From: a bacterium
GTDB taxonomy: Bacteria; UBA8248
Direction of reading: 5' to 3'
Assembly: GCA_963692865.2 (NCBI GenBank)
Contig: CAXXHI010000007.1
Coordinates: 1-28,695 of the forward strand
Length of the DNA stretch: 28,695 bases
In this document: one piece after another, positions 251 through 28,695 of the stretch
Numbering within the stretch: the first letter of the stretch is position 1
Layout: each line of letters begins with the position of its first letter
Notes under the pieces: generated by a model
The model's input: the letters and a program-made list of their open reading frames with translations, nothing else
Told to the model about the DNA's origin: nothing
Databases searched by the model: none
Position numbers and translations under genes: made by a program

Positions 251-1906
251 ATGACGTGGAGAAATAAACCAATTCACAAGTTTTACGCTTTCGCGCTGGC
301 GGCGGTCTTCGCCGTGGCGCTGGCGGGTTGCGGCGGCGGCGGCGGGAAAACCGCCGATCCGGACCCGACGCCGCAAGAAGATTGCGTAGCGGGCGGGGGC
401 CGTTGGAACGCGAATGACACCTGCACGTCCGCAGCCGACCTTCTCAAGGAAAAGCAGGCGGCGCAACGCACGGCTATCAGCAACGCCATTACGACGGCGC
501 AAACCGCAGTGGCCGGACTGACTGACGATGCTTCGGATACGGCTATCAATTCCGCCGATAGCGCGGTTGCTGCGGCAAAGAAGGCTATCGCGGACGCCGC
601 CGACATTCCCGCCGAAGAAAAAGCCGCCTTCAATACGGCGGTTTCGACAATCGAAGGCAGTCTCACTACCAAGAAAGCGAGCATCGCGGATGCGCGGGAC
701 GACGCCGACAAAGCAATGAAGGCGGCCATGACGAAGATGGGCAAGGCGATGCACGCGGCGCTGGGGCCGCCCGCCGCCGACAACACAACCGTGCTGGACA
801 ACGCCACAGTTTCCCTGTCGTCGACAGGCCTCACAGTTGATGCCGCTGAAGGCGCGGGAGCACTCACCACAAACCCAGAGTCCGTAACGCTCAAGGCCGG
901 TGATTCCGCCGGTTCGCTGAGTGGTTGGAAGGGTATGGACTATGCCCTCACAACGGGAACCGGCGCCTCGAAAATCACCAACGAAGCGAGGGTGTTTACC
1001 AACAAAAGCGCGGCGAAAACGCAAGAGTTCACCAAGAAATATACGGATTTGACTGCTGGTTACTTGACCACTATTACCGCGTCGCTGGTCGGGGGTTCCA
1101 CCTTCACACATTCGGGAACCCAGAATCACGCCCATAACGCCACTGGTGAGGCGGCGTTCGAAGTAAGAGGCACTTATGACGGCGCGCCGGGGCAGTTTAA
1201 GTGCACGGGAACCTGCACCTCGACGAATGACGGCAAGGGCAGCCCGAGCGCATTGGGTGGAACCTGGAGTTTCAAGCCCGACGTTGGCGCGATGGTATCC
1301 GTTCCCGATGCCCACTACCTGTATTTCGGCTGGTGGGTGAGAAACGACAAGGACGGCGCGCCCACGGCGGCCAGCGCGTTCACGGGTAGATTTGGAACCG
1401 ATCCCGGCGATAGCACTGATAGCCTCGACCCGGCCGGGGATGGAACTGGTATAACCGGCTCGGCGACTTATACCGGCAACGCCGCAGGAATTTTCGCCAT
1501 GAGCAACCCGCTTGACGGCACGGGCGACGGCGGAGACTTCACGGCGGACGCCACGCTGGAGGCCACGTTCGGAAGTGGCGCAACGGCAGGCATGACCGGC
1601 ACGATTGACAATTTCCGGCTGAACGGCGGCTCCGGTGATCCGGGCTGGAGCGTGAAGCTGAATCGCGCTACTTGGGGTAGCAGCGGCGCGATCACCGCCC
1701 CCACTTCCGACCCCACGGTTTGGTCGATCAACGGCAATGAGGCGGATGCGTCCGGCACTTGGTCGGGCCAGATGTATGACGAAAAGCCCGGAACTACGAA
1801 CGGCGGAGACGGGAGCAATATCCCGACCACGGTAACCGGCACGTTCTCCTCCGAATTTAGCACCATAGGCCGCATGGTCGGCGCTTTCGGCGCGGACAAG
1901 CAGTAG
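251..1906 (+). CDS. Surface lipoprotein, transferrin-binding protein B (TbpB)-like, probable Slam-type substrate
   Basis: RBS CAGGAGG upstream; signal peptide with lipobox ALAG-C then poly-Gly linker; Ala-rich helical region; Thr/Gly-rich beta C-terminal domain (YLYFGWW, GSATYTG, FTADATLEATF) ending VGAFGADKQ as in TbpB-like barrels. Confidence 0.75.
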   Translation: MTWRNKPIHKFYAFALAAVFAVALAGCGGGGGKTADPDPTPQEDCVAGGGRWNANDTCTSAADLLKEKQAAQRTAISNAITTAQTAVAGLTDDASDTAINSADSAVAAAKKAIADAADIPAEEKAAFNTAVSTIEGSLTTKKASIADARDDADKAMKAAMTKMGKAMHAALGPPAADNTTVLDNATVSLSSTGLTVDAAEGAGALTTNPESVTLKAGDSAGSLSGWKGMDYALTTGTGASKITNEARVFTNKSAAKTQEFTKKYTDLTAGYLTTITASLVGGSTFTHSGTQNHAHNATGEAAFEVRGTYDGAPGQFKCTGTCTSTNDGKGSPSALGGTWSFKPDVGAMVSVPDAHYLYFGWWVRNDKDGAPTAASAFTGRFGTDPGDSTDSLDPAGDGTGITGSATYTGNAAGIFAMSNPLDGTGDGGDFTADATLEATFGSGATAGMTGTIDNFRLNGGSGDPGWSVKLNRATWGSSGAITAPTSDPTVWSINGNEADASGTWSGQMYDEKPGTTNGGDGSNIPTTVTGTFSSEFSTIGRMVGAFGADKQ

Positions 1907-1969
1907 CAGCGAAAAGCAAGACGCCTCAGGCTACCGGGGCTTTACCGCCCCGGGGGCCGAAGGCGAGTT

Positions 1970-2106
1970 GTGAAGGATAGCGAAAAAGGGGGTTGCCCGT
2001 TGGTTGCTTCCCTCGTGATAAGCAAACTGTACCGCTCCCTGCTTATGAGTTTGAGTCCTCCGAGGAGGGAGCGGGAACAACCGGGCAGCCCCCGTTCGCG
2101 CTTCAT
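1970..2106 (+). other. Long fold-back element, candidate structured RNA
   Basis: Nested complementary arms: 1970-75/2101-06, 1980-84/2095-99, 1988-98/2083-93, 2002-06/2078-82, plus inner alternative pairings. Confidence 0.45.
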
Positions 2107-2440
2107 GCGGACAGGCCGACGCGCCGGACGCGAACAAGGCGGGCGCCGGCTCCGAAAACGGCGAGACCCGGGACCCCCTGACGGACGACCCGGCGGCGAG
2201 GCGGCCGCCGCGGCGGGGCGAAACGCGCCGTTTAAGGACGCGAGGGCGGCGCTCGCCGCCCCGGAAGACGCGGCGAGCGGCGGCGGGAGGCCATGACCCG
2301 CTTCACGCAACCAGGCGGCGCATCGGTTCGGCCCGGACCGGCTTCGCCTCGGGGGTTGCGCCGCGCAATTCCCGCCTTCAGCCGGCCGTCGAGGGGCGCC
2401 CCGGCCCTTTTGCTTCGCAGAACCCCCGACCCCTTCAAGC

Positions 2441-3551
2441 GGTTGTTGAAAACCCCTCCTTGCCCGGATTGACGATCAAAACCGTCGAACCCTCCCCGTA
2501 GGGGCCGCATACCATGCGGCCCTGTTTTTTCGCCGCCCGGCAACGGGCCGCATACTATGCGGCCCCTACAGTCGTCATTCAAAATGGTATTGCAGGCCGG
2601 ACATATATGTCTGGCGTACCATGCGGCCCTGATTTTTTTGCCCTTCCGGCAACGGGCCGCATGATATGCGGCCCCTACAGTCGTGAATCGAGGGGCGCGC
2701 AGGAACCGCGCACGGGGCCGCCGAACCTCCCCCGCCGGTCGGTCAGGACCCCGCCGCAGGTCGGACATATATGTCCGACATATCATGCGGCCCTGTTTTT
2801 TCGCCGCCCGGACGCGGGCCGCATACTATGCGGCCCCTGCAGTCGTCATTCAAAATGGTATTGCAGGCCGGACATATATGTCCGACATACCATGCGACCC
2901 TGATTTTTCGCCGCCCGGACGCGGGCCGCATGGTATGCGGCCCCTGCGGGAAGCAACCCTCGAGGGGCTGTTGGAAAAGTCCCTCGATGCGGGAAAACCA
3001 CCGTCATTCCGGCCTTGAGCCGGAATCCATTTTATGATTTTCGCTTTCGTTTTCGCATTTGATTCCGACTCGCTGGTGGGAGCGCCGCGCCCGGATCCGG
3101 AACGGATGAGGCGGATATATATGGGGCGTCCGTATCTTCCCCGTCCGGGAGCGAGGACGTCCGGTCGAAGGGCCAAAGACAAAGGCGAAAATGGATTCCG
3201 GCTCAAGGCCGGAATGACGATCAAAACCGTCGAACCCTCCCCGCAGGCCGGACATATATGTCCGGCATACCATGCGGCCCTGATTTTTCGCCGCGTCCGG
3301 ACGCGGGCCGCATGATATGCGGCCCCTACAGTCGTCAATCGAGGGGCGCGCAGGAACCGCGCACGGGGCCGCCGAACCTCCCCCGCCGGTCGGTCAGGAC
3401 CCCGCCGCAGGCCGGACATATATGTCCGACATACCATGCGGCCCTGTTTTTTCGCCCTTCCGGCAACGGGCGGCATGATATGCGGCCCCTGCGGTCGTCA
3501 ATCGAGGGGCGCGCAGGAACCGCGCACGGGGCCGGGTTTTTCAACAACCCC
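2441..3551. repeat. Composite array of six REP doublets (REPIN/BIME-like) bounded by IS-like inverted ends
   Basis: Units at 2498-2569, 2592-2678, 2756-2840, 2863-2947, 3243-3329 and 3407-3492, each G(T/C)AG-hairpin ... hairpin-CT(A/G)C; ends GGTTGTTGAAAACCC (2441) and GGGTTTTTCAACAACCCC (3534-3551). Confidence 0.9.
3002..3219. repeat. CGTCATTCCGGC-type palindromic element nested in the array
   Basis: Perfect 32-bp inverted repeats at 3002-3033 and 3188-3219; each arm is itself a hairpin (ATTCCGGC-loop-GCCGGAAT). Confidence 0.9.
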
Positions 3552-3558
3552 TGGAGGG

Positions 3559-3723
3559 TCAGCCCTTCACCGCGCCGGCCGTCATGCCGGCGATGATCTG
3601 CCGCGCCGAGAAGAAGGTGAATATGAGCGGCGGAACCACGATGAGCGTGCCCATCGCCATGATGCGCCCCCACTCGGGGCCCGCGTCCGTGAGGAACAGG
3701 CTGGTGGCGACCGGCGCGCGCAT
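3559..3723 (-). pseudogene. C-terminal remnant of a carbohydrate ABC transporter permease (MalG/UgpE-like)
   Basis: Manual translation MRAPVATSLFLTDAGPEWGRIMAMGTLIVVPPLIFTFFSARQIIAGMTAGAVKG*, ending in the typical G(L/M)TAGAVKG; in-frame stop shortly upstream; below the ORF-track cutoff. Confidence 0.85.
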
Positions 3724-4094
3724 TTCCCCGCAACTGCGATGGCGTCAGAAGGGAAGAGCGCGCGTATGATGGCGGCGCCGGGCGGTTCGTTCGAGGGATG
3801 GGGAATTCCTGAAAAATTGGATAAAATTGTATAAATTCAGGGGGTTTTTCGATGAATAGACGGCAAATTGTTTTGGGGGATACGGCGCCGCGGAATCCGG
3901 GCGCAGGGGGATTGTGGCGCGATCCGCCTCCCGCGCGATGACGGCAAATGCGCGGAATTGCGGGGAATTGCGCCCCCGCCCGGGGCGCGCGCCCGGCGCG
4001 TCGAGAGGGCGTTCTCCCGGTCATGAACGCCGCGAGCGGCTCTCATCCCGCGCGCCGCGCCTGGGGGCGTTACGCCGTAAGGAATTGATATCGC

Positions 4095-4871
<777 letters not shown>

Positions 4872-5105
4872 TTCGTCGAACTCCTTTCGCGTTGCGTATA
4901 CGGGGTTCTCCATTGCGAGGAGAAGTATGGAAACTCTGATTCGGCGAGAAGATAGCTCATGGGACGGCGTTCGTCATCCGGTGATGCGACGGGAGGGATG
5001 ATTGTAAAGAATTTCAGAAAATTTCCCGCGCCGGATTCTTTCCGTTCTACATGACAGGCGGATAAGTGAAAAAGAATCAGCAAGCTGAGTGAAAAGAATT
5101 CATTG

Positions 5106-5132
5106 TTAGCAGCCGGACGACCTGAGTGCTAA
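5106..5132. promoter_or_regulatory. CIRCE element (HrcA operator)
   Basis: TTAGCAgcC-N9-GAGTGCTAA versus consensus TTAGCACTC-N9-GAGTGCTAA (2 mismatches), upstream of groES. Confidence 0.9.
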
Positions 5133-5138
5133 TGGCGC

Positions 5139-5167
5139 TTGACAAACATTCACATTTTCCATATACA
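5139..5167 (+). promoter_or_regulatory. groESL promoter
   Basis: TTGACA-17 nt-TATACA directly after CIRCE; the overlapping CTTGA...CCATAT also resembles a heat-shock sigma promoter. Confidence 0.75.
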
Positions 5168-5283
5168 GACTCGCGCAGAAACATAGGGCCTCGTCTTCGG
5201 ATAGCGCTTTCCCCCGAAGACGGCCCCGCAGTTCCAAATATTTGTTTCCAATCGCAGCAATTGCAATCCACAAGGAGGAAGTG

Positions 5284-5586
5284 ATGGCAAAGGTCAAAAC
5301 CAGGATACAGCCTCTTCAGGACCGCATTTTGGTGAAACGCCTGGATGCGGAAGAGGAGCAGATCGGCGGGATCATCATCCCTGATTCCGCGAAAGAGAAG
5401 CCCCAGGAAGGGGAAGTGATCGCCGTAGGCCCCGGCAAGGTGACGGATGACGGGAAGAGGCAGGCGCCCGAGGTGGGCGAGGGCGACAAAATTCTTTTCG
5501 CCAAGTATGCGGGCACGGAAGTCAAGTCCGACGGCGAAGAATATCTGATCATGCGCGAAGACGACGTGCTGGCGGTCATCAACTAG
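5284..5586 (+). CDS. groES: Co-chaperonin GroES
   Basis: [41 protein letters not shown]; RBS AAGGAGG. Confidence 0.98.
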
Positions 5587-7257
<1,671 letters not shown>

Positions 7258-7274
7258 GCATTTGCCTGGTGCTC

Positions 7275-7304
7275 AAGGGGGCCTCTCCGAGGCCCCCTTT
7301 TTTT
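7275..7304 (+). terminator. Rho-independent terminator of groESL
   Basis: GGGGGCCTC-TCC-GAGGCCCCC followed by a T run. Confidence 0.9.
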
Positions 7305-7446
7305 GTGAAGATTCTCAAATGGATGTCTTGAAGAGGAGCAACTCGTCTCATAAGATGAAGCGTGGGGAGTGTTCGACGACTCGTTCCGACGATTCGCCTT
7401 CCGGCGCGTATTCAGCCGGTGGCGGAGATCGAATGGAGGGGAGCAT

Positions 7447-8706
7447 ATGAGGAAAAATGAGTCGAAAAGGCTCCCTCTCATCCTCTTCCTGATATCGTTA
7501 TCGCTGCACCTGTTCGTCTTCGCGGCTTCGAGCCATGAATACGTTTGGAGAAAATCGGCCCGGACGAATCGACCCATCAAGTTTCAGTTGGTATCCGTCG
7601 AAAAACCCGAGCAAAAACTTCTCCCGAACCCCCGAAGCCGGTTTTTATCCAATGCCAACCGAAAAGAAAGTGGCTCCGGCAAACCCGGCAAGACCCCGCG
7701 CCTAAAGCGCGAATCTAAAGACCAGATTCCATCTCGTAGAGGTAGGCTCGGCCCTGAGATTGCGCCTTTAGCGCCGGTTCCAAAACCGAAGGGCCAAGTT
7801 CCAGCCCTCCCGCCGGCGAGTCCAAAACCCCCGTCAGCCGTAACGCCAAAACCTGAGCTTAGAAAGGCGGAAAAATCGAAGGAAAGGAAATCTCCCGCAA
7901 CTTCGGAGATAACGGAAACGCCCCGGCCGACGGAGACGGCGAGCCTGGCGCCGGCGCCAAAGCCTTCGGTCAGGGCCCCGTCGCCCGCGATTCCCCAAAA
8001 GGCGCAACCGAAGGCAAAGCCGCCGGCGGATAAAAAGCCGGAGAGAGAAGAAATAGAGGCCGAAGCGATTCCGAAGATAAAGCGCAAGCCCAAACCGGTG
8101 GTCAGGAAGAAAACGGAAAAAGTGGTCGTAAAGAAAAAGCCCCGAGAGAAGAACAGGAAAGCCGAGGCGAAGAAAAAGACGAAGGAGAGGGTTGAACTGG
8201 CCGCGTTGAAACCGGTTTCTCGACCCGTCCGACCGCGCCGTCCAGTTCCGAAACAGCCACAACCGAAAGACCCTTTGGCGCTGTTTCGAGTGAAGCCCCG
8301 GCCCGAAAGTAAACCCGAGCGCCCCAACTTCGGGCTCTCGGACGAGGCGGCGGACAGAATCGCGAAAAGAAGTTTGCCGGATGAAGATCTGAAAAAAGAA
8401 GAAGGCGATGCCATTTCGCTCGACACGCGCGATTTTCGGTACGCCTCTTATTTCGCCCATATCAAGAGGCGAATCCAGAACGCCTGGATTTGGCCTGTGG
8501 AGGCGCAGAAAAACAGGGGCGAACTGCTGTTGCGCTTTAAGCTGAGAAAAAACGGAACTTTGGAGGAAGTGCGTCTGATCAGGTCCGCAGGGGTTCGAAT
8601 TCTCGATGATCTGGCGATGGCCGCCGTCACCAAGGCGGCGCCGTTCGAGCCGTTTCCGGCAGGTCTTGAACGCAAGCCGATTACCGCCACTTTCGTGTAT
8701 GAGTGA
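7447..8706 (+). CDS. Energy transducer TonB/TolA-family protein
   Basis: N-terminal TM anchor (LISLSLHLFVF), long Pro/Lys-rich linker, C-terminal domain YFAHIKRRIQNAW...SAGVRILDDLAMAAVTKAAPFEPFP; start chosen from RBS GGAGGGG. Confidence 0.85.
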   Translation: MRKNESKRLPLILFLISLSLHLFVFAASSHEYVWRKSARTNRPIKFQLVSVEKPEQKLLPNPRSRFLSNANRKESGSGKPGKTPRLKRESKDQIPSRRGRLGPEIAPLAPVPKPKGQVPALPPASPKPPSAVTPKPELRKAEKSKERKSPATSEITETPRPTETASLAPAPKPSVRAPSPAIPQKAQPKAKPPADKKPEREEIEAEAIPKIKRKPKPVVRKKTEKVVVKKKPREKNRKAEAKKKTKERVELAALKPVSRPVRPRRPVPKQPQPKDPLALFRVKPRPESKPERPNFGLSDEAADRIAKRSLPDEDLKKEEGDAISLDTRDFRYASYFAHIKRRIQNAWIWPVEAQKNRGELLLRFKLRKNGTLEEVRLIRSAGVRILDDLAMAAVTKAAPFEPFPAGLERKPITATFVYE

Positions 8707-8747
8707 GCCGGGGGCATCGTTTCCGAATTTTGGGGCGATCTGTTTGG

Positions 8748-8776
8748 TTGACACCCGCAAGTGCTGATTTTAGGAT
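8748..8776 (+). promoter_or_regulatory. Sigma70-type promoter of the metal regulator
   Basis: TTGACA-17 nt-TAGGAT. Confidence 0.65.
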
Positions 8777-8816
8777 GATTTTTTCTGCGATTCACTGCGA
8801 ATCAGAGGACTGCCCT

Positions 8817-9488
8817 TTGCCCGAATCATCGCCGCGGTTGAGCAAACAGATCGAAGATTATTTGAAGAACATCTTCAAGCTTCAACAGGAATCGTCTCCC
8901 GTGGCGACGAGCGCGATTGCGGAGTGCATGGAAATCTCGGCGGCGTCGGTGACGAGCATGGTCAAGAAGCTCGATCACCAGGGACTGCTCACATATACGC
9001 CGTATAAGGGGGTCGTCTTAAGCTCAAGGGGAGAGAAGGTCGCCCTGGAGATTATCAGGCACCACCGGTTGCTCGAATTGTATCTCAACCAAAAGATGGG
9101 AATCGAGTGGGACAAGGTGGATGTCGAGGCCGAGGAATTGGAGCACGTCTTGAGCGAGGAGCTGGAAGCCGTTTTGGACAAGGAACTCGGCTACCCCACC
9201 CTGGATCCCCACGGGGATCCGATTCCCGCAAAAGACGGCACCATGGTTGACACGAAGGAAATTGGCCTCCTCTCGCTCGAGGCGGGGCGGGCCACGAAGA
9301 TCACCCGCGTATTGCAGGACGATCCGAACATATTGCGCTACCTGGGCGAGCTTGGCTTTTTCCCCGAAATGCCCATCGAGGTCATCGAGCAATCGCCTCT
9401 CGCCGGCACGGTAACGCTGCTCGTAAACGGAACCAGACATACCTTGGGCCGCGATATCGCCTCTCGAATTTTCGCGCTGAATGAATAA
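8817..9488 (+). CDS. DtxR/MntR-family metal-dependent transcriptional regulator with C-terminal FeoA-like domain
   Basis: EDYLK, SVTSMVKKL, RHHRLLELYL, EAEELEH, DPHGDPIP; TTG start inferred from RBS GAGGA. Confidence 0.93.
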   Translation: MPESSPRLSKQIEDYLKNIFKLQQESSPVATSAIAECMEISAASVTSMVKKLDHQGLLTYTPYKGVVLSSRGEKVALEIIRHHRLLELYLNQKMGIEWDKVDVEAEELEHVLSEELEAVLDKELGYPTLDPHGDPIPAKDGTMVDTKEIGLLSLEAGRATKITRVLQDDPNILRYLGELGFFPEMPIEVIEQSPLAGTVTLLVNGTRHTLGRDIASRIFALNE

Positions 9489-9533
9489 AACCATCATCGC
9501 TGCGTTCTTGACGCAATTTCATTAGGAGAAGAC

Positions 9534-10097
9534 ATGCCCGCCAGGAAAAGGACCACCAGGAAAAAGACCGCCAAACAGGATTTCGACCACCGCTTCCGCG
9601 CCACCTACGACAAGGACGTCGAGTGGCAGGAAGACGTGAGCAACGAACTGCTGACCCTGCCGCCGGGGGTGAAGGTGAAGATTTTCGCCCATGATCCGGT
9701 GATGAAGCGGATCGACATGAAGGTGAAGTTCCCGAAAGGCTACGTGGAGCCTCGTCACACGCACAAGAGCTGGCATTCCATTCTGGTGACCCGGGGCAGG
9801 ATGTGCGTGGCGGGCAAGGATTTGAGGCCGGGCGATTACGTTTTCGGATGGGACTTGCCGCACGGCCCGTATGAATATCCCGACGGCTGCGAGGTTTTCG
9901 TCGTCTTCATGGGCGAGGGCACGCAGCACGTCTGGGAGGAAGAAAAGCACCTCAAGCACAAACTGAAATGGGAGGCGAGGTCGGCCGCGGGCAAAAAAGC
10001 CGTAGCCAAAGGCGACACGGCGAGGAAGGAAGCCTTGGCCGAAAAAAGAGCCACCGCGAGGTCCGCGGCGAAGAGAAAGACGCGCCGCTCGGGATGA
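9534..10097 (+). CDS. Cupin-domain protein (ChrR-like) with basic N- and C-terminal tails
   Basis: EPRHTH...LRPGDYVF...PHGP cupin motifs; RBS AGGAG. Confidence 0.75.
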   Translation: MPARKRTTRKKTAKQDFDHRFRATYDKDVEWQEDVSNELLTLPPGVKVKIFAHDPVMKRIDMKVKFPKGYVEPRHTHKSWHSILVTRGRMCVAGKDLRPGDYVFGWDLPHGPYEYPDGCEVFVVFMGEGTQHVWEEEKHLKHKLKWEARSAAGKKAVAKGDTARKEALAEKRATARSAAKRKTRRSG

Positions 10098-10101
10098 GAC
10101 G

Positions 10102-11121
10102 ATGACGCCGCAGCGAATCGCCGTCATCGGCGCCGGCGCCTGGGGGACGGCGTTGGCGGATTTGTTCTCCGGTACCGGCCACGAGGTGATGCTCTGGGTT
10201 TTCGAGGCCGACCTTTGCGCCCGCATGGCGTCGGATCGCGAGAACGACTTGTATCTGCCCGGCGTCGCCCTGCACGAGAATTTGCGCTTCACCTCCGATC
10301 TGGCCGAAGCCGCCTCGGCGGGCCAGGACGTTCTCGTGAGCGTGATGCCGAGCCATGTCGTCCGGGCGGTGTGGACGAAGCTCGCGCCCTCGGTTCACGA
10401 GGAAACGCTCATCGCGAGCGCCACGAAGGGCGTGGAGGAGAAGACCCTCCTCCTGCCCACCCGGATTATCTCCGAATGCATCGGCGAGGCGGGGGGCGCT
10501 GAGCGCGCCCTCGCCTGCTTCTCGGGACCGACGTTCGCCCGCGAGCTCGCGGAGAGAAAACCCACGGCCATCACGGCGGCGTCGGACGATTCCGGGGCGG
10601 CGAAGGCGATTCAGGAGGCGCTCTCGGCGCCTGGTTTCAGGATATACACGGGCGCCGACCCGGTCGGCGTCCAGCTCGGCGGGGCGCTCAAGAACGTCAT
10701 CGCCCTGGCGGCGGGTATCGCCGACGGCATGGAGCTCGGCTACAACGCGCGGGCGGCGCTCATCGTGCGCGGTCTGGCGGAAATCGCTCGACTCGGCGCC
10801 GCGATGGGCGGCCGGGCGGAGACGTTCGCGGGCCTGGCCGGAATGGGCGATCTGGTGCTGACGTGCACGGGCGACCTGAGCCGGAACAGGACGGTGGGCG
10901 TGCGGTTGGGCAGGGGAGAGCCTCTCCGGAAGATACTCGAATCCATGACGGCGGTGGCCGAGGGCGTATCCACGGCGCCGGCGGCGGTGGGGCTCGCGGA
11001 TGAGCACGGCGTGGAGATGCCCATATGCCGCGAGGTGCACGCCGTGTTGTTCGAGGGACGCAATCCCGAAGACGCCGTGCGCGACCTCATGGCGCGTCCG
11101 CTCAAGGCCGAACTTCCCTAG
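10102..11121 (+). CDS. gpsA: NAD(P)H-dependent glycerol-3-phosphate dehydrogenase
   Basis: GAGAWGTALA, SGPTFA, GGALKNVIA, GLAGMGDLVLTCTGDLSRNR. Confidence 0.97.
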   Translation: MTPQRIAVIGAGAWGTALADLFSGTGHEVMLWVFEADLCARMASDRENDLYLPGVALHENLRFTSDLAEAASAGQDVLVSVMPSHVVRAVWTKLAPSVHEETLIASATKGVEEKTLLLPTRIISECIGEAGGAERALACFSGPTFARELAERKPTAITAASDDSGAAKAIQEALSAPGFRIYTGADPVGVQLGGALKNVIALAAGIADGMELGYNARAALIVRGLAEIARLGAAMGGRAETFAGLAGMGDLVLTCTGDLSRNRTVGVRLGRGEPLRKILESMTAVAEGVSTAPAAVGLADEHGVEMPICREVHAVLFEGRNPEDAVRDLMARPLKAELP

Positions 11122-11746
11122 GGGGTCAAACGCGAGTGAGGAGCGAGCGTTTGCAGACCGAGGAGAAGGGGTGCCAGCGTGATGCGATGCGAGAGGAAAT
11201 GCGGGCGGTTGCGGGGAAATGCGCAGTCGGCGAAAAACTTTTTTTGCCGCCGTATCTGAGTGCCGGACGCTAAGATTTATATGACAACCCTTTTGATTAC
11301 AACCACTTGCAAGAGATAAAATTTTCAGGAATTTATCCAAAAACCCCGTGAATTTATACAAATTTATACAAAATATCATTATTTTTATTATCAATCGTTT
11401 CCCTGAACCCACCGGCGTCGCCCCTCCGGCTGCGGCGGTCAAACCTTGGCAAAGAGCAAGAATCCATTCCAACCGAAGAAGCAGGAATTGACAGCCCGAT
11501 GACGGGAGATTTCCGGGCCAAGTAAAAAGATTTGCCGTTTTCACTCCCGCCGCACCACTGAATCCCATGAGAAACCTCCGCTCTTTCCGTTCAATTCCAG
11601 ACGATACGGGAAACCGCTTTCCCGCGCCGCGCGCACGATACCGCAGGGCGGGATTTCGGGGGGAAGAGGAATTGCGGGGAAATGCGTGGGTAAAGTCGAT
11701 TGAGAAAAGAAATGTGGGGTATACACTGCAACAACTTATACAAATT

Positions 11747-12661
11747 TCATAGTCTGGAAGAAATACGAGGCTCATAATCGAGTTGGGGCGCTTCCCCGGG
11801 TTGCTTCGGCAAGTCTTCGTTGAACAAAGGCGAATTCGAGTCCCATTCAATACGGGGCGTTACGTTACGCGCGGCCAGGATGGGCGCCGAAAAGACAAAA
11901 CGCTCGTCATACCGTCGGTAAATCGTCTCGAAGAATCGTTCGAAGCGTAAAGGGCTTTTCATTGGCGGGAAGGCGTCGAGCAGCTTCCCGGTGTTCGGGC
12001 CGCTCGTTTCCACCAAAGCGAGGCCGACCGCTTCGTATTTGCTGATCGTATCGCGCAAGTCGGCGCGCCCCTCCAGTTGCCTGAATGCTTCGTGGTAGCG
12101 GACGATTCCGTCCACCGGGTTTCCGTCTTGCCGGAGCGCAACGTCGTTATCGGCGAGTGGAGAAACGCTCCCGGCGCGATGCGCCCGAAGCACCGAGAAG
12201 TATCCGATCACGAGCGCGGCGTAGGTCATGTGCAGGTTCGTGCACTCACCAACCGCTTCCTCCATTCGGTTGGTGAGATTGCGAAACGCTTTCCCCGTGG
12301 TTTTACAGGAGACCCCAATGACGGGGCCGATGCCGGGTTTTTCCACGACTACGTCTACGCCTTTGGTCCTCAGACCGCCTAATACAACCGCCTCGCTACC
12401 GCTTGCCGCATTCAAGTCGAAGCGCAAGAGCTGGCTCGCGCCCTTCTTGACGGCTTTGAACGGCGGATGGGGCTTTATTTCATCGGGATGAAACCCGCCT
12501 TCGACGACCAGACGGCAGGCGATATACCAATGGAGCGGCTTTACGATATTCTGGCTTTGCGGCTTCTCTTCGGATGTGGCGAGGTGACGGAAGGTCTCTT
12601 TGGCCCCGAGCCAGTGGCAGACTTGCCAATCCTTCTTCGTGAACTCTTCAAGCCGCTTCAT
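11747..12661 (-). CDS. Putative type II restriction endonuclease (PD-(D/E)xK fold, distant PaeR7I/XhoI-like)
   Basis: TKGVDVVV...IGVSCK...FRNLTNRMEEAVGE; start overlaps the methyltransferase stop by 14 nt, RBS GGAGG. Confidence 0.7.
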   Translation of the reverse strand: MKRLEEFTKKDWQVCHWLGAKETFRHLATSEEKPQSQNIVKPLHWYIACRLVVEGGFHPDEIKPHPPFKAVKKGASQLLRFDLNAASGSEAVVLGGLRTKGVDVVVEKPGIGPVIGVSCKTTGKAFRNLTNRMEEAVGECTNLHMTYAALVIGYFSVLRAHRAGSVSPLADNDVALRQDGNPVDGIVRYHEAFRQLEGRADLRDTISKYEAVGLALVETSGPNTGKLLDAFPPMKSPLRFERFFETIYRRYDERFVFSAPILAARNVTPRIEWDSNSPLFNEDLPKQPGEAPQLDYEPRISSRL

Positions 12662-22216: not shown

Positions 22217-22825
22217 ATGGCGCATGAATTGAGGTTCAGGCTTTGGTGGGCAGCGCTTTTGCTCCTCGGGACGACGGGCTGCGCCTATGAGATATCGACG
22301 ATACAAGGCGTCGCCAGACCGGAGAAGATACGAGCGCTCGAACGCCTCGCCGTCGCTCCTTTTCGCTATCCGAACGATTGGACGGGGCTTTTCCGCGACG
22401 TCTACGCGCAGGCGGGGCTCCGGGCGCCCGATGTGAGGAAAATCGAGATGATAGAGGGCGCCTTCCTGATTCGAGACGCCTTGAGCGCCAAGGGCCATCT
22501 GGTCGTCCGCTGGCCCAAAAGTCTCGAAATAAAGAAGATGGACGATTTGCTAAACGAAGAAGGAGAAATCGCCGAGGCCCATCTTCCGTTGCTCGTGGAT
22601 TCGGGCGCGCAGGCGGTGGTGGTCGCCCGAGGCGGGCGCGCCTGCCCGGACGTCGAGGTGTGCGCCGCGAGGGTGGAGATACGCCTGCTGGACTTGACTT
22701 CCCGGGAAGTGTTGTGGAGGTCGCAAGCCGCCGCGACGACGGCGTTCTCCCAGGGGGACGAGATGAAGGCCGCCGTCGCCGAGGCGCTCGACGCCTTTCC
22801 CGGAAAATCGGCTTCTTCCGAGTGA
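22217..22825 (+). CDS. Putative lipoprotein (CsgG/LpoB/DUF799-like fold)
   Basis: WWAALLLLGTTG-C lipobox; RLAVAPF and VEIRLLDLTSREVLW; start uncertain (22193-22217). Confidence 0.65.
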   Translation: MAHELRFRLWWAALLLLGTTGCAYEISTIQGVARPEKIRALERLAVAPFRYPNDWTGLFRDVYAQAGLRAPDVRKIEMIEGAFLIRDALSAKGHLVVRWPKSLEIKKMDDLLNEEGEIAEAHLPLLVDSGAQAVVVARGGRACPDVEVCAARVEIRLLDLTSREVLWRSQAAATTAFSQGDEMKAAVAEALDAFPGKSASSE

Positions 22826-22855
22826 GGGCGGGAATCTCGCAGTGACGGATATCGG

Positions 22856-23018
22856 GTAGGGGCCGTTCGCGAACGTGGGGCGTTCATAAACGCCCCACCC
22901 GGAGAAACGGGCGCTTCACGAAGCGCCCCTACGCCGTCTCGGCCCGCAGATCATCGTCATTCCGGCTTTTGCCGGAATGACGGCAAACCCTCCCGCATCG
23001 GGCTTTTTCAACGCTCCC
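22856..23018. repeat. Repeat cluster: chimeric GTAG REP doublet, collapsed ATTCC hairpin and IS-like end
   Basis: REP hairpins 22856-22932; CGTCATTCCGGC-TTTT-GCCGGAATGACG 22955-22982; GGGCTTTTTCAACGCTCCC 23000-23018. Confidence 0.85.
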
Positions 23019-23157
23019 GTTTTCCGCTGTTTGGACAACCCCCGTCATGACGTTTTGTCGTCACTGTCCGGCGTCTTGTGACAAAATGGCAACTCGGCCA
23101 ACCAACGCACATTTGTATTTCATTGATATGTAAGGACTTGTTTAGGTTTTTGGGAAA

Positions 23158-23173
23158 TGGCACGGGAATTGCT
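23158..23173 (+). promoter_or_regulatory. Sigma54 (RpoN) -24/-12 promoter
   Basis: TGGCACGGGAATTGCT matches TGGCAC-N5-TTGCW; AT-rich IHF-like segment at about 23116-23140. Confidence 0.85.
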
Positions 23174-23183
23174 GTATATAAGG

Positions 23184-23402
23184 GCAAGCTGGCCGGAGCG
23201 TTCATGAGAAAGATGAACGCAGATGGAACCGTGCGGCGTCCAAACAACATATAATCGCTGATCGGGGCGTTCATAGGCGGCACGCCCCGGTTGGCAGGCG
23301 AGAGGAGTGGCCGATTGGGTCGGCGCTCCTCCGCCACGCAATCATACGTCTCGCGGCTATCCCCTGCGAGAGCCTCCTCCCGGAGACGGGAGGAGGTTTT
23401 TT
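23184..23402 (+). ncRNA. Candidate sigma54-dependent structured small RNA (about 220 nt)
   Basis: Lies between a sigma54 promoter and an intrinsic terminator; four hairpins, three with plus-strand G-U pairs; no long ORF of its own. Confidence 0.6.
23372..23402 (+). terminator. Rho-independent terminator
   Basis: CCTCCTCCCG-GAGA-CGGGAGGAGG then TTTTTT. Confidence 0.9.
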
Positions 23403-23534
23403 ATCGGCCTGATTTCCCTCCGCCCGGTTTTCAAGCGCGCGTCGTTGGGTTATGGTGCGTCCCGTACGAAATCATACGGCGTCCGTTCGATGAGACGCCG
23501 GGAATTCATCCATTCAGCGAGTGAGGAGTCAACA

Positions 23535-24533
23535 ATGGCTACGGACAAGGTGCGCCTCGCCTCTATCGGGCTGGGCTGGTGGGGCGGCGTTCTGGTGGAG
23601 GCGCTGGGCCGCAGCGGCGCGGGCGAGGTGGTGACGGGTTTCGCGCGCAGCGAGGACGCCCGCAAGGCGTTTTCCGAAAAACACGGCTGCCGGACGGCGG
23701 GCAGTCTGGACGAAGTCTGGAACGACCCGGAAGTCGAGGGCGTCATCGTCGCGACGCCCCACTCCACGCACCTCGATATGATCTCCTCGGCCGCGTCGGC
23801 GGGGAAGCACGTGTTCGTCGAAAAGCCGCTCACCCTCACGGTCGATGAGGCCAAAAAGGCGGTCGAGGCAACCTCGAGCGCGAGCGTCACCCTGCAGGTC
23901 GGCCATCACCGCCGCCGCTTCGGCGCGAACCGCAAGATGCGCGAGATGATCGAGGGCGGCGAGCTCGGCATGGTGCACCAGGTGGAGGCGAACCTCTCGC
24001 TCCCCATGGGTTTCGAATCCAGGCCGGGCTGGCGCAACGACCCCGCCGAATGCCCCGCCGGCTCGATGACGGGCCTCGGCGTCCACATGATCGACAACCT
24101 GCAGTACCTCGCCGGCCCCGCGAAGCGGGTGGCCGCGTTCAGCAAGAAGCTGCTCGGCAAGACGAATCTGGACGACGCGACGAGCATCATCATCGAGTAC
24201 GAGAGCGGCCCCCTCGGCCACATCGGCTCCTCTTTCGTCGTCCCCAAGATCTGCGACACGGCGGCCTTCGGCACGAAGATGCGCGCCTACAGCGAAGAAG
24301 AGGGCGGAAAGCTCTACGTGGCCAAGGTGGGCGAGGAGGCCCGCACGGAAGTCGAGGTCGTGGGCGGAGACGCCCTGGCGGATGAGATGGACGAGTTCTG
24401 CAAGTGCATCCGGGGCGAGGCGACTCCCGAGACGGGCGGGCCCGAGGGGCTCGAGGTCGTCGCCGTGCTCGAGGCGGTCGTGCGGAGCGCGGCGACGGGC
24501 GAGGTGGTGGACGTGGCGGCCCTTCGCGGATAG
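23535..24533 (+). CDS. Gfo/Idh/MocA-family oxidoreductase
   Basis: IGLGWWG, VATPHSTH, GKHVFVEKPL, GVHMID; RBS GAGGAG. Confidence 0.95.
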   Translation: MATDKVRLASIGLGWWGGVLVEALGRSGAGEVVTGFARSEDARKAFSEKHGCRTAGSLDEVWNDPEVEGVIVATPHSTHLDMISSAASAGKHVFVEKPLTLTVDEAKKAVEATSSASVTLQVGHHRRRFGANRKMREMIEGGELGMVHQVEANLSLPMGFESRPGWRNDPAECPAGSMTGLGVHMIDNLQYLAGPAKRVAAFSKKLLGKTNLDDATSIIIEYESGPLGHIGSSFVVPKICDTAAFGTKMRAYSEEEGGKLYVAKVGEEARTEVEVVGGDALADEMDEFCKCIRGEATPETGGPEGLEVVAVLEAVVRSAATGEVVDVAALRG

Positions 24534-24560: not shown

Positions 24561-26807
24561 ATGGCTCAGTTGACGCACGTCGGCGCGTCGCCGACGAAAG
24601 AGGACGCCCTGGCCAAGGCGGTCGGCGATACGGTCTACGGCGATGATTTCCACATGCCGGGCGAGATATACGGGAAAGCCGTCCGCGCCACGATGACGCC
24701 GGCGAAGATCAAGAAAATAGACGCAGGCGAGGCGCTCGCCCTGCCGGGCGTGCACTGCGTCCTCACGGCGAAGGACATCCCCGGACTGAACGCGGGCCGC
24801 TACCCCGATTACCCGGTGCTTGCCGAAGACCTCGTGGTCGACATCGGCGACGCGGTCGCGCTCGTGGCCGCCGACACCCGGGACTTGGCCGAAGAGGCGG
24901 CCTCGCTCGTGCGCGTCGTCTACGAGCCGCTGCCGGGCGCTTACGATTTCGCCGGTCTCGAAGAGGGCGAGGTGGTCTGCGACTGGAAGACGGACAAGGG
25001 AGACGTGGAGGCGGGCTTCGCCGAGGCGGACGTGATCGTGGAGAAGACCTATTTCTCCGCCTGTCTGGATCACGCCTTCATCGAGCCCGAAGGCGGCGTC
25101 GCCTGGGTGGACGAGCGCGGGGTGGTGAACATCCGCGTGCCCACGCAGATGATCGAGAACTACCAGAACGTGGCGCGCACGCTGGATCTTCCGCTCAGCC
25201 GCGTGCGGTACGACTGCCCGATGCTGGGCGGCGCGTTCGGCGGCAAGGAGCACCCCCTGCTCGGCGCTTTCATGGCGCTCTTGTCGATCCGGACGGGGCG
25301 CCCCGTGCGCATGGCCTACTCGCGCGAGGAGACCATGAACACCGGCAGCAAGAAGCACCCCTTCCTCATGAAGTACAGGACGGGCGCCACGAAGGACGGA
25401 AAACTCACCGCGATAGAAGTCGACATCGTCGGCGACGCGGGCGGCTACACGGCCAACAGCAAGGGCCTGCTCCTGGGCGCGCTCGTGGTGAGCGGGGGGC
25501 CCTACGAGATCCCCAACGCCCGGGGCCGCGCGCGCGCCGTCAGGACGAACAACCCCTTCACCGAGGCGATGCGCGGCGTGGGCGCGAACCAGGTGTGCTT
25601 CGCCTACGAGGCGCAGATGGACGAGCTCGCCGCGCGGCTGGGGATGGACCCCCTGGAGTTCCGCGAGAAGAACTTCATCGCCAGGGGCGAGACCCTCATG
25701 CAGAACCAGCCCGTGCCCACGCGCGTGATGCTGCCCGAACTGGTCGAGGAGACCAAAAAGCTCATCGGCCGCTCGGCGGGCCGGGTTCCTGAGAAGGATC
25801 ACGGCCCCTGGCGCGCCGGCGTCGGGTACGTCGCGAACATCGGCGGTTACGGGAGGCCGAGGAACGAGGGCGAGGTCTACGTGGGCATCGACGCAGACGG
25901 CAGCGTGAACGTGCGCGCGGGCGCATCGGACGTGGGCGCGGGCCAGACCGAGACGAACCGCCAGATAGCGGCCGAAGCGCTGGGCATTTCCTTGGAGGAC
26001 GTGACGGTCACGATGTCGGATTCCCACGTCACCCCGCTGGTGGGGGTCACTGCTGGGTCGCGCCAGACGATGATCTCGGGCGGCTCGTGCTACCGCGCCT
26101 CGGCGGAGCTGAAAGACAGAATCCTGAAGGGCGCGGCGGAGCTTCTCGAAGCGAACCCGGAAGACTTGGACATCCGCGAGGGGCGCGTCTACGTGAAGGC
26201 CGCCGAGGAGCGCGGGGTCGCCTTCGGGGAAGCCGTGGCCCAGTGCAAAAAGATGGGAATCGACCTCCACACCGTGGGCAAGACGAAGCTCGGCGTCCAC
26301 GAGTACGAGGGCAACGAGCAATACGGCGACGCGGGCGGCTGGATGGACTACGTGTTCGGCATCCACGCCGCCGAGGTCGAGGTGAACGTCGATACGGGCG
26401 AGCTTCGCGTGCTCAACTACTGGTCGGGCCACGACGTGGGCCAGTCCATCAACTTGCAGCACGTGGAAGGCCAGTTCGAGGGCGGCACGATGATGGGCGT
26501 CGGCCACGCCCTGACCGAAGAGGTCCTCACGCAAAAGGGCGCGCTCCTGAACAACGAGTTCCACGGCTACCTCATCCCCACCTCGGTGGACACGCCCGAG
26601 TGGGACAACGTGATCCTGGAATCCGGCGAAGGCCTGGGCCCCTACGGGGCGAAAGGCATCGGCGAGCCGCCCTGCACGGCGGGCGCCGCGGCGGTGGCCT
26701 GCGCGGCGGGCCAGGCGATTGGGGCGCGCATCACGCGCATCCCCATCACGCCGGACCACGTGCTGGAGGTGCTGGGGCGGCTCAAGACGAACGGAAGCCA
26801 AGGCTAG
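24561..26807 (+). CDS. Xanthine dehydrogenase-family molybdopterin-binding (large) subunit
   Basis: HAFIEPE, GGAFGGK, AMRGVG, AGSRQT, GQFEGG, KGIGEPP. Confidence 0.95.
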   Translation: MAQLTHVGASPTKEDALAKAVGDTVYGDDFHMPGEIYGKAVRATMTPAKIKKIDAGEALALPGVHCVLTAKDIPGLNAGRYPDYPVLAEDLVVDIGDAVALVAADTRDLAEEAASLVRVVYEPLPGAYDFAGLEEGEVVCDWKTDKGDVEAGFAEADVIVEKTYFSACLDHAFIEPEGGVAWVDERGVVNIRVPTQMIENYQNVARTLDLPLSRVRYDCPMLGGAFGGKEHPLLGAFMALLSIRTGRPVRMAYSREETMNTGSKKHPFLMKYRTGATKDGKLTAIEVDIVGDAGGYTANSKGLLLGALVVSGGPYEIPNARGRARAVRTNNPFTEAMRGVGANQVCFAYEAQMDELAARLGMDPLEFREKNFIARGETLMQNQPVPTRVMLPELVEETKKLIGRSAGRVPEKDHGPWRAGVGYVANIGGYGRPRNEGEVYVGIDADGSVNVRAGASDVGAGQTETNRQIAAEALGISLEDVTVTMSDSHVTPLVGVTAGSRQTMISGGSCYRASAELKDRILKGAAELLEANPEDLDIREGRVYVKAAEERGVAFGEAVAQCKKMGIDLHTVGKTKLGVHEYEGNEQYGDAGGWMDYVFGIHAAEVEVNVDTGELRVLNYWSGHDVGQSINLQHVEGQFEGGTMMGVGHALTEEVLTQKGALLNNEFHGYLIPTSVDTPEWDNVILESGEGLGPYGAKGIGEPPCTAGAAAVACAAGQAIGARITRIPITPDHVLEVLGRLKTNGSQG

Positions 26808-26902: not shown

Positions 26903-27082
26903 CCACTCCCCCCTTGAGGGCTGTTGCCGATTTAGTAGGGACAGGTCGCGACCTGTCCCTACAATTTGAAGGTCTCCATTTTCTTGCTCATAAGCCGTAG
27001 GGACAGGCCCCTGTGCCTGTCCCTATCAAGCGCAACCTCAGAGATAGACATTATACGGGCGGCCACGGGGGGCCGCCCCTAC
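26903..27082. repeat. Cluster of a half CACTCCCCC hairpin and three GTAG REPs
   Basis: Perfect 28-bp palindrome GTAGGGACAGGTCGCGACCTGTCCCTAC (26935-26962); further REPs at 26997-27025 and 27057-27082. Confidence 0.85.
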
Positions 27083-27104
27083 GCCCCCGGTTTCTGTTTT
27101 TAGC

Positions 27105-27242
27105 CGTCATTCCGGCGAAAGCCGGAATCCATTTTTACGCCTTTTGCCTTTCGTCCGGATACCCGTGCATCGGTGGGGAATGAAACGCCGCCGTATGTTC
27201 ACCCGCATCCGCAAATGGATTCCGGCTTTCGCCGGAATGACG
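27105..27242. repeat. CGTCATTCCGGC-type palindromic element
   Basis: Perfect 30-bp inverted repeats CGTCATTCCGGCGAAAGCCGGAATCCATTT. Confidence 0.9.
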
Positions 27243-27441
27243 ATCAAGAACCTTCATCCCGCTTTCCCGCCGCATCACGGAATTCCCATGATTGGAACCT
27301 TACTCCGTCGTAACTCTAGATAGGATGAAATGAAGGAATACGCGCCACGGCTGCCGGATGAGAATGAACGGCAACGCCGCGTGTCCAGCGATACATAAGA
27401 GATTGCGCCGCCTGGATTAAACGATCAGGGAGGGACGCACG

Positions 27442-28605: not shown

Positions 28606-28632
28606 CCCGGAGCATATCGAAACCAAAGCGCC

Positions 28633-28673
28633 AGAGAATCACTCCCCTCTTGATGGGGTTGTTGAAAAAGTCC
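28633..28673 (+). repeat. Half CACTCCCC hairpin fused to an IS-like end; element likely continues past the window
   Basis: AGAGAATCACTCCCC (identical to 19781-19795) followed by GGGGTTGTTGAAAAAGTCC. Confidence 0.75.
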
Positions 28674-28695
28674 TTTCGGATCGAGCCGAACCATT

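Follow-up and report, generated by a model that had tools for sequence, protein, structure and literature searches.

Does the stretch of DNA that precedes an oxidoreductase gene in this bacterial contig encode a small regulatory RNA in its own right, or does it belong to the genes that follow it? The window analysed here is the entire 28.7-kb contig (28,695 nucleotides (nt); contig C8 in our numbering), and a previous reading of its letters alone (the sequence-only reading) had proposed that positions 23040-23402 form a self-contained sigma-54 transcription unit for an unannotated, structured small RNA (sRNA) of about 220 nt. We find that the unit represents a real, conserved and hitherto undescribed family of predicted sigma-54-dependent sRNAs. 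The novelty that had been claimed for it holds for the family and not for the kind of system, as the regulator is of a familiar type. We consider it probable that the locus is an independent small non-coding RNA gene, activated through sigma-54 and an NtrC-type protein, whose product probably pairs with mRNAs in trans. As is characteristic of trans-encoded sRNA genes, the unit has its own promoter and its own intrinsic terminator, with no conserved coding frame between them.

The window is a strain-variant duplicate of positions 1537567-1561826 on the main contig of the same genome (C1, 3.94 Mb), to which it is 92-99% identical in blocks, so the 99% second copy of the RNA locus on C1 is the same locus and not a paralog. 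Single-base differences occur in the promoter and 5' region at 23174 and 23190, where the C1 version was seen in public DNA contigs. Comparisons were made within a phylum sample of 51 genomes, namely the host genome (97.4% complete), 41 others of its family and nine from three other families; the genus comparison covers 22 other genomes and 23 genus loci. A covariance model was built from 28 genus copies of the RNA. A loose pattern scan across the genome contigs returned at least 117 stretches, and the covariance model confirmed six of the 80 loci taken further.

By BLAST, the 3' 150 nt of the unit (23257-23410) were found at 78-94% identity in all 22 other genomes of the genus, and the promoter and dyad region was only 67-76% identical across them. 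The covariance model recovered the RNA in 36 of the 41 other family genomes, spread over seven genera, and in none of the nine genomes from the three other families. One of the five misses (genome G024) is an assembly gap, its contig stopping 220 nt 5' of the gene for the GFO/IDH/MocA oxidoreductase (hereafter GFO) that normally follows the RNA, inside what appears to be the 3' half of the terminator. The four remaining misses (L208-L210 and L212) all belong to one genus, g22, whose AT-rich genomes of 2.1 Mb have a membrane-protein gene directly ahead of GFO, with about 100 nt and no RNA between the two. The sequence-only reading had named a dispersed repeat as an outcome that would count against the unit; apart from the strain-variant contig, the unit is present at one place in the genome.

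The predicted stems are supported by compensatory change. When the 28 genus copies were aligned with MAFFT, 98.3% of cells could pair and nine of 49 pairs changed on both sides, a number reached by none of 500 shuffled alignments (mean 4.3); sliding the structures by 1-3 columns on the same alignment left pairing in 44-52% of cells. Across 43 copies, 24 of 49 pairs changed on both sides (shuffled mean 11.1; 0 of 500 shuffles reached 24), this larger alignment being fitted to the model and hence biased towards it. Covariation is strongest in the H2 hairpin, where two-sided changes affect 6 of 16 pairs in the genus and 9 of 16 across the 43 copies, and in the terminator, where seven of nine pairs covary across genera. 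The H3 hairpin barely varies: 10 of its 17 pairs never change in the genus and 7 of 17 never change across the 43 copies. Also invariant across the 43 copies are AGGCGGCAC in the H2 loop, most of H3 (GGCG..GGAG..GAU-GG-UCG..CUCC..CGCC) and the U.AU core of the linker that follows it. This linker is the only AU-rich single strand of the family and contains CAU in nearly all copies; 3' of it lies a C/U-rich stretch, located either in the H4 loop or on the 5' side of the terminator. In several genera the hexamer AGGCGG is found twice, once in the H2 loop and once at the base of H3. With the whole unit kept in seven genera and its stems covarying, the description of the unit as self-contained is borne out.

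The RNA was also correctly predicted to be new to Rfam. Searches against Rfam 15 gave no match at gathering scores anywhere in the window, the RNA included, and the families left unmatched presumably include GlmY/GlmZ, Qrr, CrcZ and Pxr. At E values up to 10, the best match reached 22.5 bits, where the gathering score is 52, and was located on the repeat region, not on the RNA; two distant homolog loci likewise gave no Rfam match.

At the 5' end of the unit, the -24/-12 promoter that the sequence-only reading had recognised is found without mismatch to its consensus, and its counterpart on C1 is the sole perfect site among the 149 C1 sites with two or fewer mismatches to TGGCACG-N4-TTGCW. The pattern TGG[CT]A[CT]-N5-[TG]TGC matched in all 38 promoter-bearing copies of the RNA (23 in the genus and 15 from six other genera), with the box 30-40 nt before an anchor in the H2 loop; in the window this distance is 102 nt because of a 5' insertion described below. 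The enhancer-like dyads are present upstream, and are conserved across genera. In 21 of 23 genus loci the distal one lies 105-116 nt 5' of the -24 box, and it is also seen in several other genera; the proximal one lies 75-78 nt 5' of the promoter in most copies. Both of these predicted binding sites thus fall in the range usual for the upstream sites of sigma-54 promoters (about 70-150 nt). The dyad pattern, GAC-W5-GTC, matched in 33 of the 38 promoter-bearing copies, at 64-78 and/or 97-124 nt upstream, and the remaining five hold GACA-W-TGAC variants in the same position. The AT tract previously likened to an IHF site corresponds to an AT-rich block that is conserved genus-wide and to which IHF or HU might bind; the genome has five HU/IHF-family genes.

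Downstream of the promoter, hairpins H1 to H4 were found at the positions proposed for them. The fold of the single sequence contains H1, H2, H3 and the terminator and no H4, which is backed by the alignment fold. H2 had been described as a stem of 14 base pairs (bp) with three G-U pairs; we predict 16 pairs in this genome, four of which are G-U. The plus strand folds at -114.4 kcal/mol (z -5.81; none of 200 shuffles was as good), and the minus strand folds nearly as well (-104.7 kcal/mol, z -5.86), so energy alone cannot set the strand of the RNA. We assign it to the plus strand because of the promoter, the T-run and the conserved G-U pairs, an argument the sequence-only reading had already drawn from the last of these; U-G is kept at two pairs in 28 of 28 sequences. 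The GNRA-capped terminator about 130 nt before the next gene was also found as described, and in all copies its stem is followed by 6-8 U. A consensus pattern scan of 22700-23700 called neither this terminator nor any sigma-70-type promoter.

The proposed length of about 220 nt holds as the predicted transcript of this genome and does not hold for the family. Between the promoter and H2 the window has an insertion of 70 nt where others have 1 nt, absent from the 19 other genus loci that were aligned and from three further loci; in all of these, H2 follows the promoter within about 20 nt. H1 and the A-rich strand are real features of this genome. They are confined to this lineage-specific insertion and not conserved, so the family RNA is about 150 nt long (23257-23402) and consists of H2, H3, linker, H4 and terminator, with H4 missing in two genera. 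The first part of the insertion duplicates, in diverged form, the 5' end of the RNA itself (GCTGGCCGGAGCGTTCAT versus GCTGATCGGGGCGTTCAT), and the insertion was spanned without a gap in the DNA contigs of three of four public runs. A second copy was sought in the genome and none was found, which rules out a mobile or dispersed repeat as its origin.

Table 1. Positions of the predicted sRNA unit, its upstream sites and its downstream neighbours in the window.
Feature	Position	Strand	Remarks
Distal activator-binding dyad TGACGTTTTGTCG, GAC-W5-GTC type	23048-23060	not assigned	predicted from sequence
Proximal activator-binding dyad TGACAAAATGGCA	23079-23091	not assigned	predicted from sequence
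AT-rich block TATTTCATTGATATGTAAGG, possible IHF/HU bending site	23116-23135	not assigned	conserved genus-wide as TATCTCATTGATAAATAAGG; binding putative
Sigma-54 -24/-12 promoter TGGCACGGGAATTGCT	23158-23173	+	0 mismatches to TGGCACG-N4-TTGCW
Predicted primary transcript, about 219 nt	23184-23402	+	putative start 12 nt downstream of the C of the -12 GC
Genome-specific 5' insertion, holding H1 and an A-rich stretch	23187-23256	+	net 69 nt
H1 hairpin	23198-23220	+	predicted fold; within the insertion
H2, 16-bp stem with invariant apical-loop motif AGGCGGCAC	23257-23295	+	predicted fold, covariation
H3, 17-bp hairpin, GGCG..GGAG..GAUNGGNUCG..CUCC..CGCC	23297-23335	+	both arms almost invariant
Single-stranded linker ACGCAAUCAUACG, containing CAU	23336-23348	+	putative seed
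H4, 7-bp hairpin with C-rich loop	23349-23371	+	alignment fold; variable
Intrinsic terminator: 9-10-bp G+C stem (23374-23395), GAGA loop, T6 (23397-23402)	23374-23402	+	
Promoter-like block TTTTCA-N17-TATGGT	23428-23456	+	conserved, between sRNA terminator and GFO operon
GFO/IDH/MocA oxidoreductase gene	23535-24533	+	syntenic neighbour, outside the RNA; ATG 132 nt after the terminator
Xanthine-dehydrogenase-family molybdenum (Mo)-subunit gene	24561-26807	+	syntenic neighbour, outside the RNA

Which protein might act on this promoter? No enhancer-binding protein is encoded in the window, as had been noted before, and the genome elsewhere encodes one rpoN (a single Sigma54_DBD match) and two proteins with strong Sigma54_activat matches. 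The first has a REC-AAA-HTH_8 architecture; its gene follows that of a PAS/HisKA/HATPase kinase and is located on the main contig, about 40 kb away. The second is of the GAF-AAA-HTH_8 type. Neither protein reaches any NCBIfam equivalog cut-off, and the best partial matches are AtoC/NtrC/ZraR for the REC-type regulator and NifA/FhlA for the GAF-type one. Full-length orthologs of the REC-AAA-HTH regulator (70-93% identity) are found in every RNA-bearing genus and also in G024, the genome with the assembly gap. Genome G041, with a 48% match, is the sole RNA-holding genome without a clear ortholog, and the four RNA-less genomes have only a GAF-type relative with 50-51% identity across the AAA part. 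These g22 genomes jointly lack the RNA, the unknown gene that is normally upstream of it and the NtrC-type activator, and retain GFO and the GAF-type activator.

The same dyad marks two further promoters. C1 holds 21 GAC-W5-GTC sites and 13 relaxed -24/-12 sites, three of which have a dyad 40-250 nt upstream, and the number of such pairs expected by chance from the site counts is about 0.015. Besides the promoter of the window RNA, the pairs include a second unit at C1:1116177-1116560 (L181), in which a palindrome, TGACATTTTGTCA, and an AT-rich block similar to that at the window promoter are followed by the promoter TGGCACGATTCGTGCT, about 185 nt of gene-free structured sequence, and a terminator directly adjoining the stop codon of a HAD-like gene that converges on the unit, as read from the reverse strand. 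Of the 22 genus genomes, 21 retain this unit together with its promoter. Rfam gave no match for it, and we regard it as a candidate second sigma-54 sRNA, unrelated to the window RNA. The third promoter, TGGCATGAATTTTGCT at C1:608955 (minus strand), has the dyad CGACAAAAAGTCG 121 nt upstream and heads a run of genes that begins with one for a membrane protein of 66 residues and continues with Usp-like, RimK-like, ProA-like and cytochrome c genes, to about position 605300; these gene names are a reading of N-terminal translations.

From these features we infer the following course of events. The NtrC-type regulator encoded beside the PAS histidine kinase would bind both GAC-W5-GTC dyads (23048-23091), helped by looping of the DNA at the AT-rich block that lies between the dyads and the promoter, and would then open the sigma-54 promoter at 23158-23173. 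The transcript would start near 23184, end at the terminator (23374-23402) and act in trans without Hfq or CsrA, for neither of which a gene was found in the 97.4%-complete genome. Its CAU linker and C/U-rich stretch would most likely pair with the start-codon and Shine-Dalgarno regions of mRNAs, and their order, 5'-CAU ... CCUCC-3', would fit antiparallel pairing to a Shine-Dalgarno sequence plus a start codon. The RNA is probably co-regulated with the second, unrelated sigma-54 sRNA and with the one stress operon that bears the same dyad.

Some relatives hold more than one copy of the RNA. In five species (L022-L026), a second copy (the b copy) is found 5.5-7 kb downstream of the first (the a copy), after the ARPP-1-domain gene that closes the gene cluster; a symporter-like gene in the same orientation follows the b copy after about 135 nt. 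The promoter pattern matched in none of the three b copies that could be anchored, and by eye TGGCAC is found in none of the five. Paired changes distinguish the H2 stems of b and a copies and point to selection on the structure of the b copies. We also observed that the b copies have a degenerate remnant of the -24/-12 promoter and no dyad. Genome G043 likewise has two copies, each with promoter and dyad, and the second of them faces convergent genes, one of which reads like ComEC.

Several observations weigh against an independent, mRNA-pairing RNA. The assignment of its activator rests on a co-occurrence that amounts to a single loss event and is thus only a hint, and since two of the three recovered promoters had served to define the dyad and promoter patterns, only the third is an independent recovery. 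Duplex screens of the H2 loop, the H3 loop and the linker with H4 against 13,284 candidate start regions, collected by a crude rule of an open reading frame plus a Shine-Dalgarno sequence, yielded no target; the matches were noisy, the top duplexes were long, interrupted, G+C-rich and mostly inside genes, and the start regions of GFO and of the xanthine-dehydrogenase-family gene behind it (XDH) ranked poorly, from 1,865 to 12,182. Genomic position fits another role as well: 37 of the 38 promoter-bearing copies lie 110-290 nt upstream of a co-oriented GFO/XDH operon, with co-oriented GFO and XDH following the RNA at all 23 genus loci and at 14 of the 15 from other genera, and the five promoter-less b copies also precede a co-oriented gene. 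This strict linkage means that a leader role has to be weighed, in which the sigma-54 promoter would serve the GFO/XDH operon, a ligand or protein bound to H2 and H3 would decide whether the terminator forms, in the manner of an attenuator or riboswitch, and the short RNA would be the off product. An enzyme operon together with a transporter is a typical riboswitch pairing. Within the genus, the 3' arms of H3 (CUCCUCC) and of the terminator (GGAGGAG) might pair with each other, but this strand exchange is not kept in genus g2, where the terminator sequence is different. The aptamer-like part, moreover, amounts to two simple hairpins with no conserved junctions, all copies have a strong terminator with its U-run, and the second G043 copy, with full promoter and dyad, has convergent genes downstream. 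A promoter-like block (a TTTC-type hexamer-N17-TATnnT, with a TTG-N3-TAT core) is kept between terminator and GFO in every genus, and its TTG-N3-TATnnT core is also present in the four g22 genomes that have GFO and no RNA; this conservation suggests that the GFO/XDH operon has a promoter of its own. The block in the window matches 8 of 12 consensus positions, was not called by the pattern scan and is proposed as a promoter from its conservation, which again counts against our explanation. On balance, we regard a leader as improbable.

The near-invariance of both H3 arms, which goes beyond the needs of pairing, is not explained by simple base-pairing with mRNA, and a protein may therefore bind there. 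This leads to a reading in which the sigma-54 sRNA is still independent and sequesters a protein, with the invariant H3 and the repeated AGGCGG as binding sites. The failure of the duplex screens to produce a convincing mRNA target agrees with it, as does the closest regulatory analogue, that of CbrB with CrcZ and CrcY, which yields sequestering RNAs (PMC6296734). Against it, the genome has no CsrA or Hfq gene that we could find, AGGCGG is present in two copies only and forms no array, and no candidate partner protein is encoded beside the RNA; Pfam and NCBIfam searches found no RNA-binding domain in the two genes upstream. We consider sequestration as the principal role rather unlikely. Specifically, a CsrA sponge of the CsrB/RsmZ type was rejected, there being no CsrA match and a GGA in a loop only at the terminator. 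Finally, the block might produce no stable RNA and instead regulate at the DNA level, encode a small protein or be a repeat. In some genomes, open frames of 50-60 codons do overlap the unit, and dispersed repeats lie directly upstream (22900-23012), but no frame is open throughout the 20 loci examined, which also disposes of a small open reading frame, the substitutions in the stems are compensatory, the unit is not dispersed, and promoter and terminator bracket it in every copy; we find this explanation very hard to credit. An independent sRNA gene whose product pairs with mRNAs is thus the reading we retain.

Similar units are known from other bacteria. The GlmY/GlmZ system of Enterobacteriaceae also combines a sigma-54 promoter, activator dyads and IHF sites with regulators, GlrK/GlrR (QseE/QseF), encoded elsewhere; the window RNA differs from it in having no Rfam match and no glmS-type context, and in coming from a different phylum. 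The Pxr sRNA of Myxococcus resembles the RNA described here in being confined to one lineage and in forming a unit complete in itself, with an enhancer, a -24/-12 promoter, a short structured RNA and a terminator, but the two are not related in sequence. The Qrr RNAs of Vibrio are shorter, Hfq-dependent and represented in Rfam families, whereas the window RNA has no Rfam match and we saw no quorum-sensing context around it. CrcZ and CrcY of Pseudomonas are related to each other, unlike the two sRNAs reported here, and Hfq also takes part in the sequestration of Crc by these RNAs. The window RNA matches them neither in sequence nor through Rfam.

The likeness to CrcZ and CrcY lies in their control. 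According to PMC6296734, CbrB, an NtrC-family two-component activator, acts on crcZ, crcY and an operon via CbrB sites, IHF and sigma-N, from sigma-54 promoters with upstream sites and an IHF site. Where CbrB targets two sRNA genes and protein-coding operons in that account, one type of dyad here heads two sRNA candidates and one operon. The same paper gives the CbrB subsites as TGTTAC/GTAACA, as against GAC-W5-GTC here, and describes CrcZ and CrcY as sequestering Crc (PMC6296734). No Hfq gene was found in the present genome. For Qrr1-4 of Vibrio, PMC4878744 describes a comparable arrangement, in which LuxO, a phosphorylated NtrC-type regulator, activates qrr1-4 together with sigma-54 and the main output is a set of small, terminated sRNAs. 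The Qrr RNAs are also paralogs (PMC4878744), which in the present family has its likeness in the five species with a second copy and in G043 with its two promoter-bearing copies. Under Nitrospinota, the label carried by two member records of the genus, no described sRNA was found in the literature at the level of abstracts.

By itself, the RNA is one further sigma-54-dependent sRNA. It adds a well-supported RNA family, with a covariance model ready for use, in a small phylum of uncultured bacteria, and it would be a case of sRNA control in a genome in which we found no gene for Hfq or CsrA. The letters alone reveal the predicted regulatory logic: an NtrC-type two-component activator, a shared dyad, an AT-rich block, sigma-54, two sRNAs and an operon, a regulon small enough that it could be rebuilt in a laboratory host. 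A bolder proposal, which we offer as a long shot, is that one rpoN, two activators and three dyad-sharing promoters make up a minimal sigma-54 system whose main outputs would be the two sRNAs and the stress operon, with H3 and AGGCGG forming a platform for some RNA-binding regulator. If true, the arrangement would be a counterpart to the CbrB-CrcZ/CrcY sequestration circuit that works without Hfq or CsrA.

Other possible contacts of the RNA were tried and set aside. A stretch reading CAUCUCGC is common to the relatives' copies of the RNA and the second sRNA (the window copy reads CGUCUCGC); its complement, GCGAGATG, was considered as a target motif and discarded, with 419 occurrences and no pattern. 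Pairing of the H3 loop GAUUG with the linker CAAUC was judged by eye and rejected, as species with GAUCG retain CAAUC and the two do not covary. The predicted 5' untranslated region of GFO (23459-23500) contains a covarying hairpin of its own, with a loop, G(A/C)AAUCA, that resembles the linker's CAAUCA and is complementary to GAUUG of the H3 loop. A contact between these two loops was also rejected: it is perfect in one species and mismatched elsewhere, with no consistent covariation.

Two further observations concern the surroundings of the unit. The XDH gene encodes a xanthine-dehydrogenase-family Mo subunit that scores below every NCBIfam equivalog cut-off; no Fe-S or FAD subunit genes adjoin it in the window, and its partner is the GFO/IDH/MocA oxidoreductase. 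Dispersed palindromic repeats are found at 22860-23012, 27000-27300 and 28630-28695, for example GTCATTCCGGC...GCCGGAATGAC and GGGGCGTTCATAAACGCCCC. Contig depth across 22900-23003 is 10-150 times that of the adjacent sequence in public DNA runs, and the repeats occupy the site where relatives hold the b copy of the RNA.

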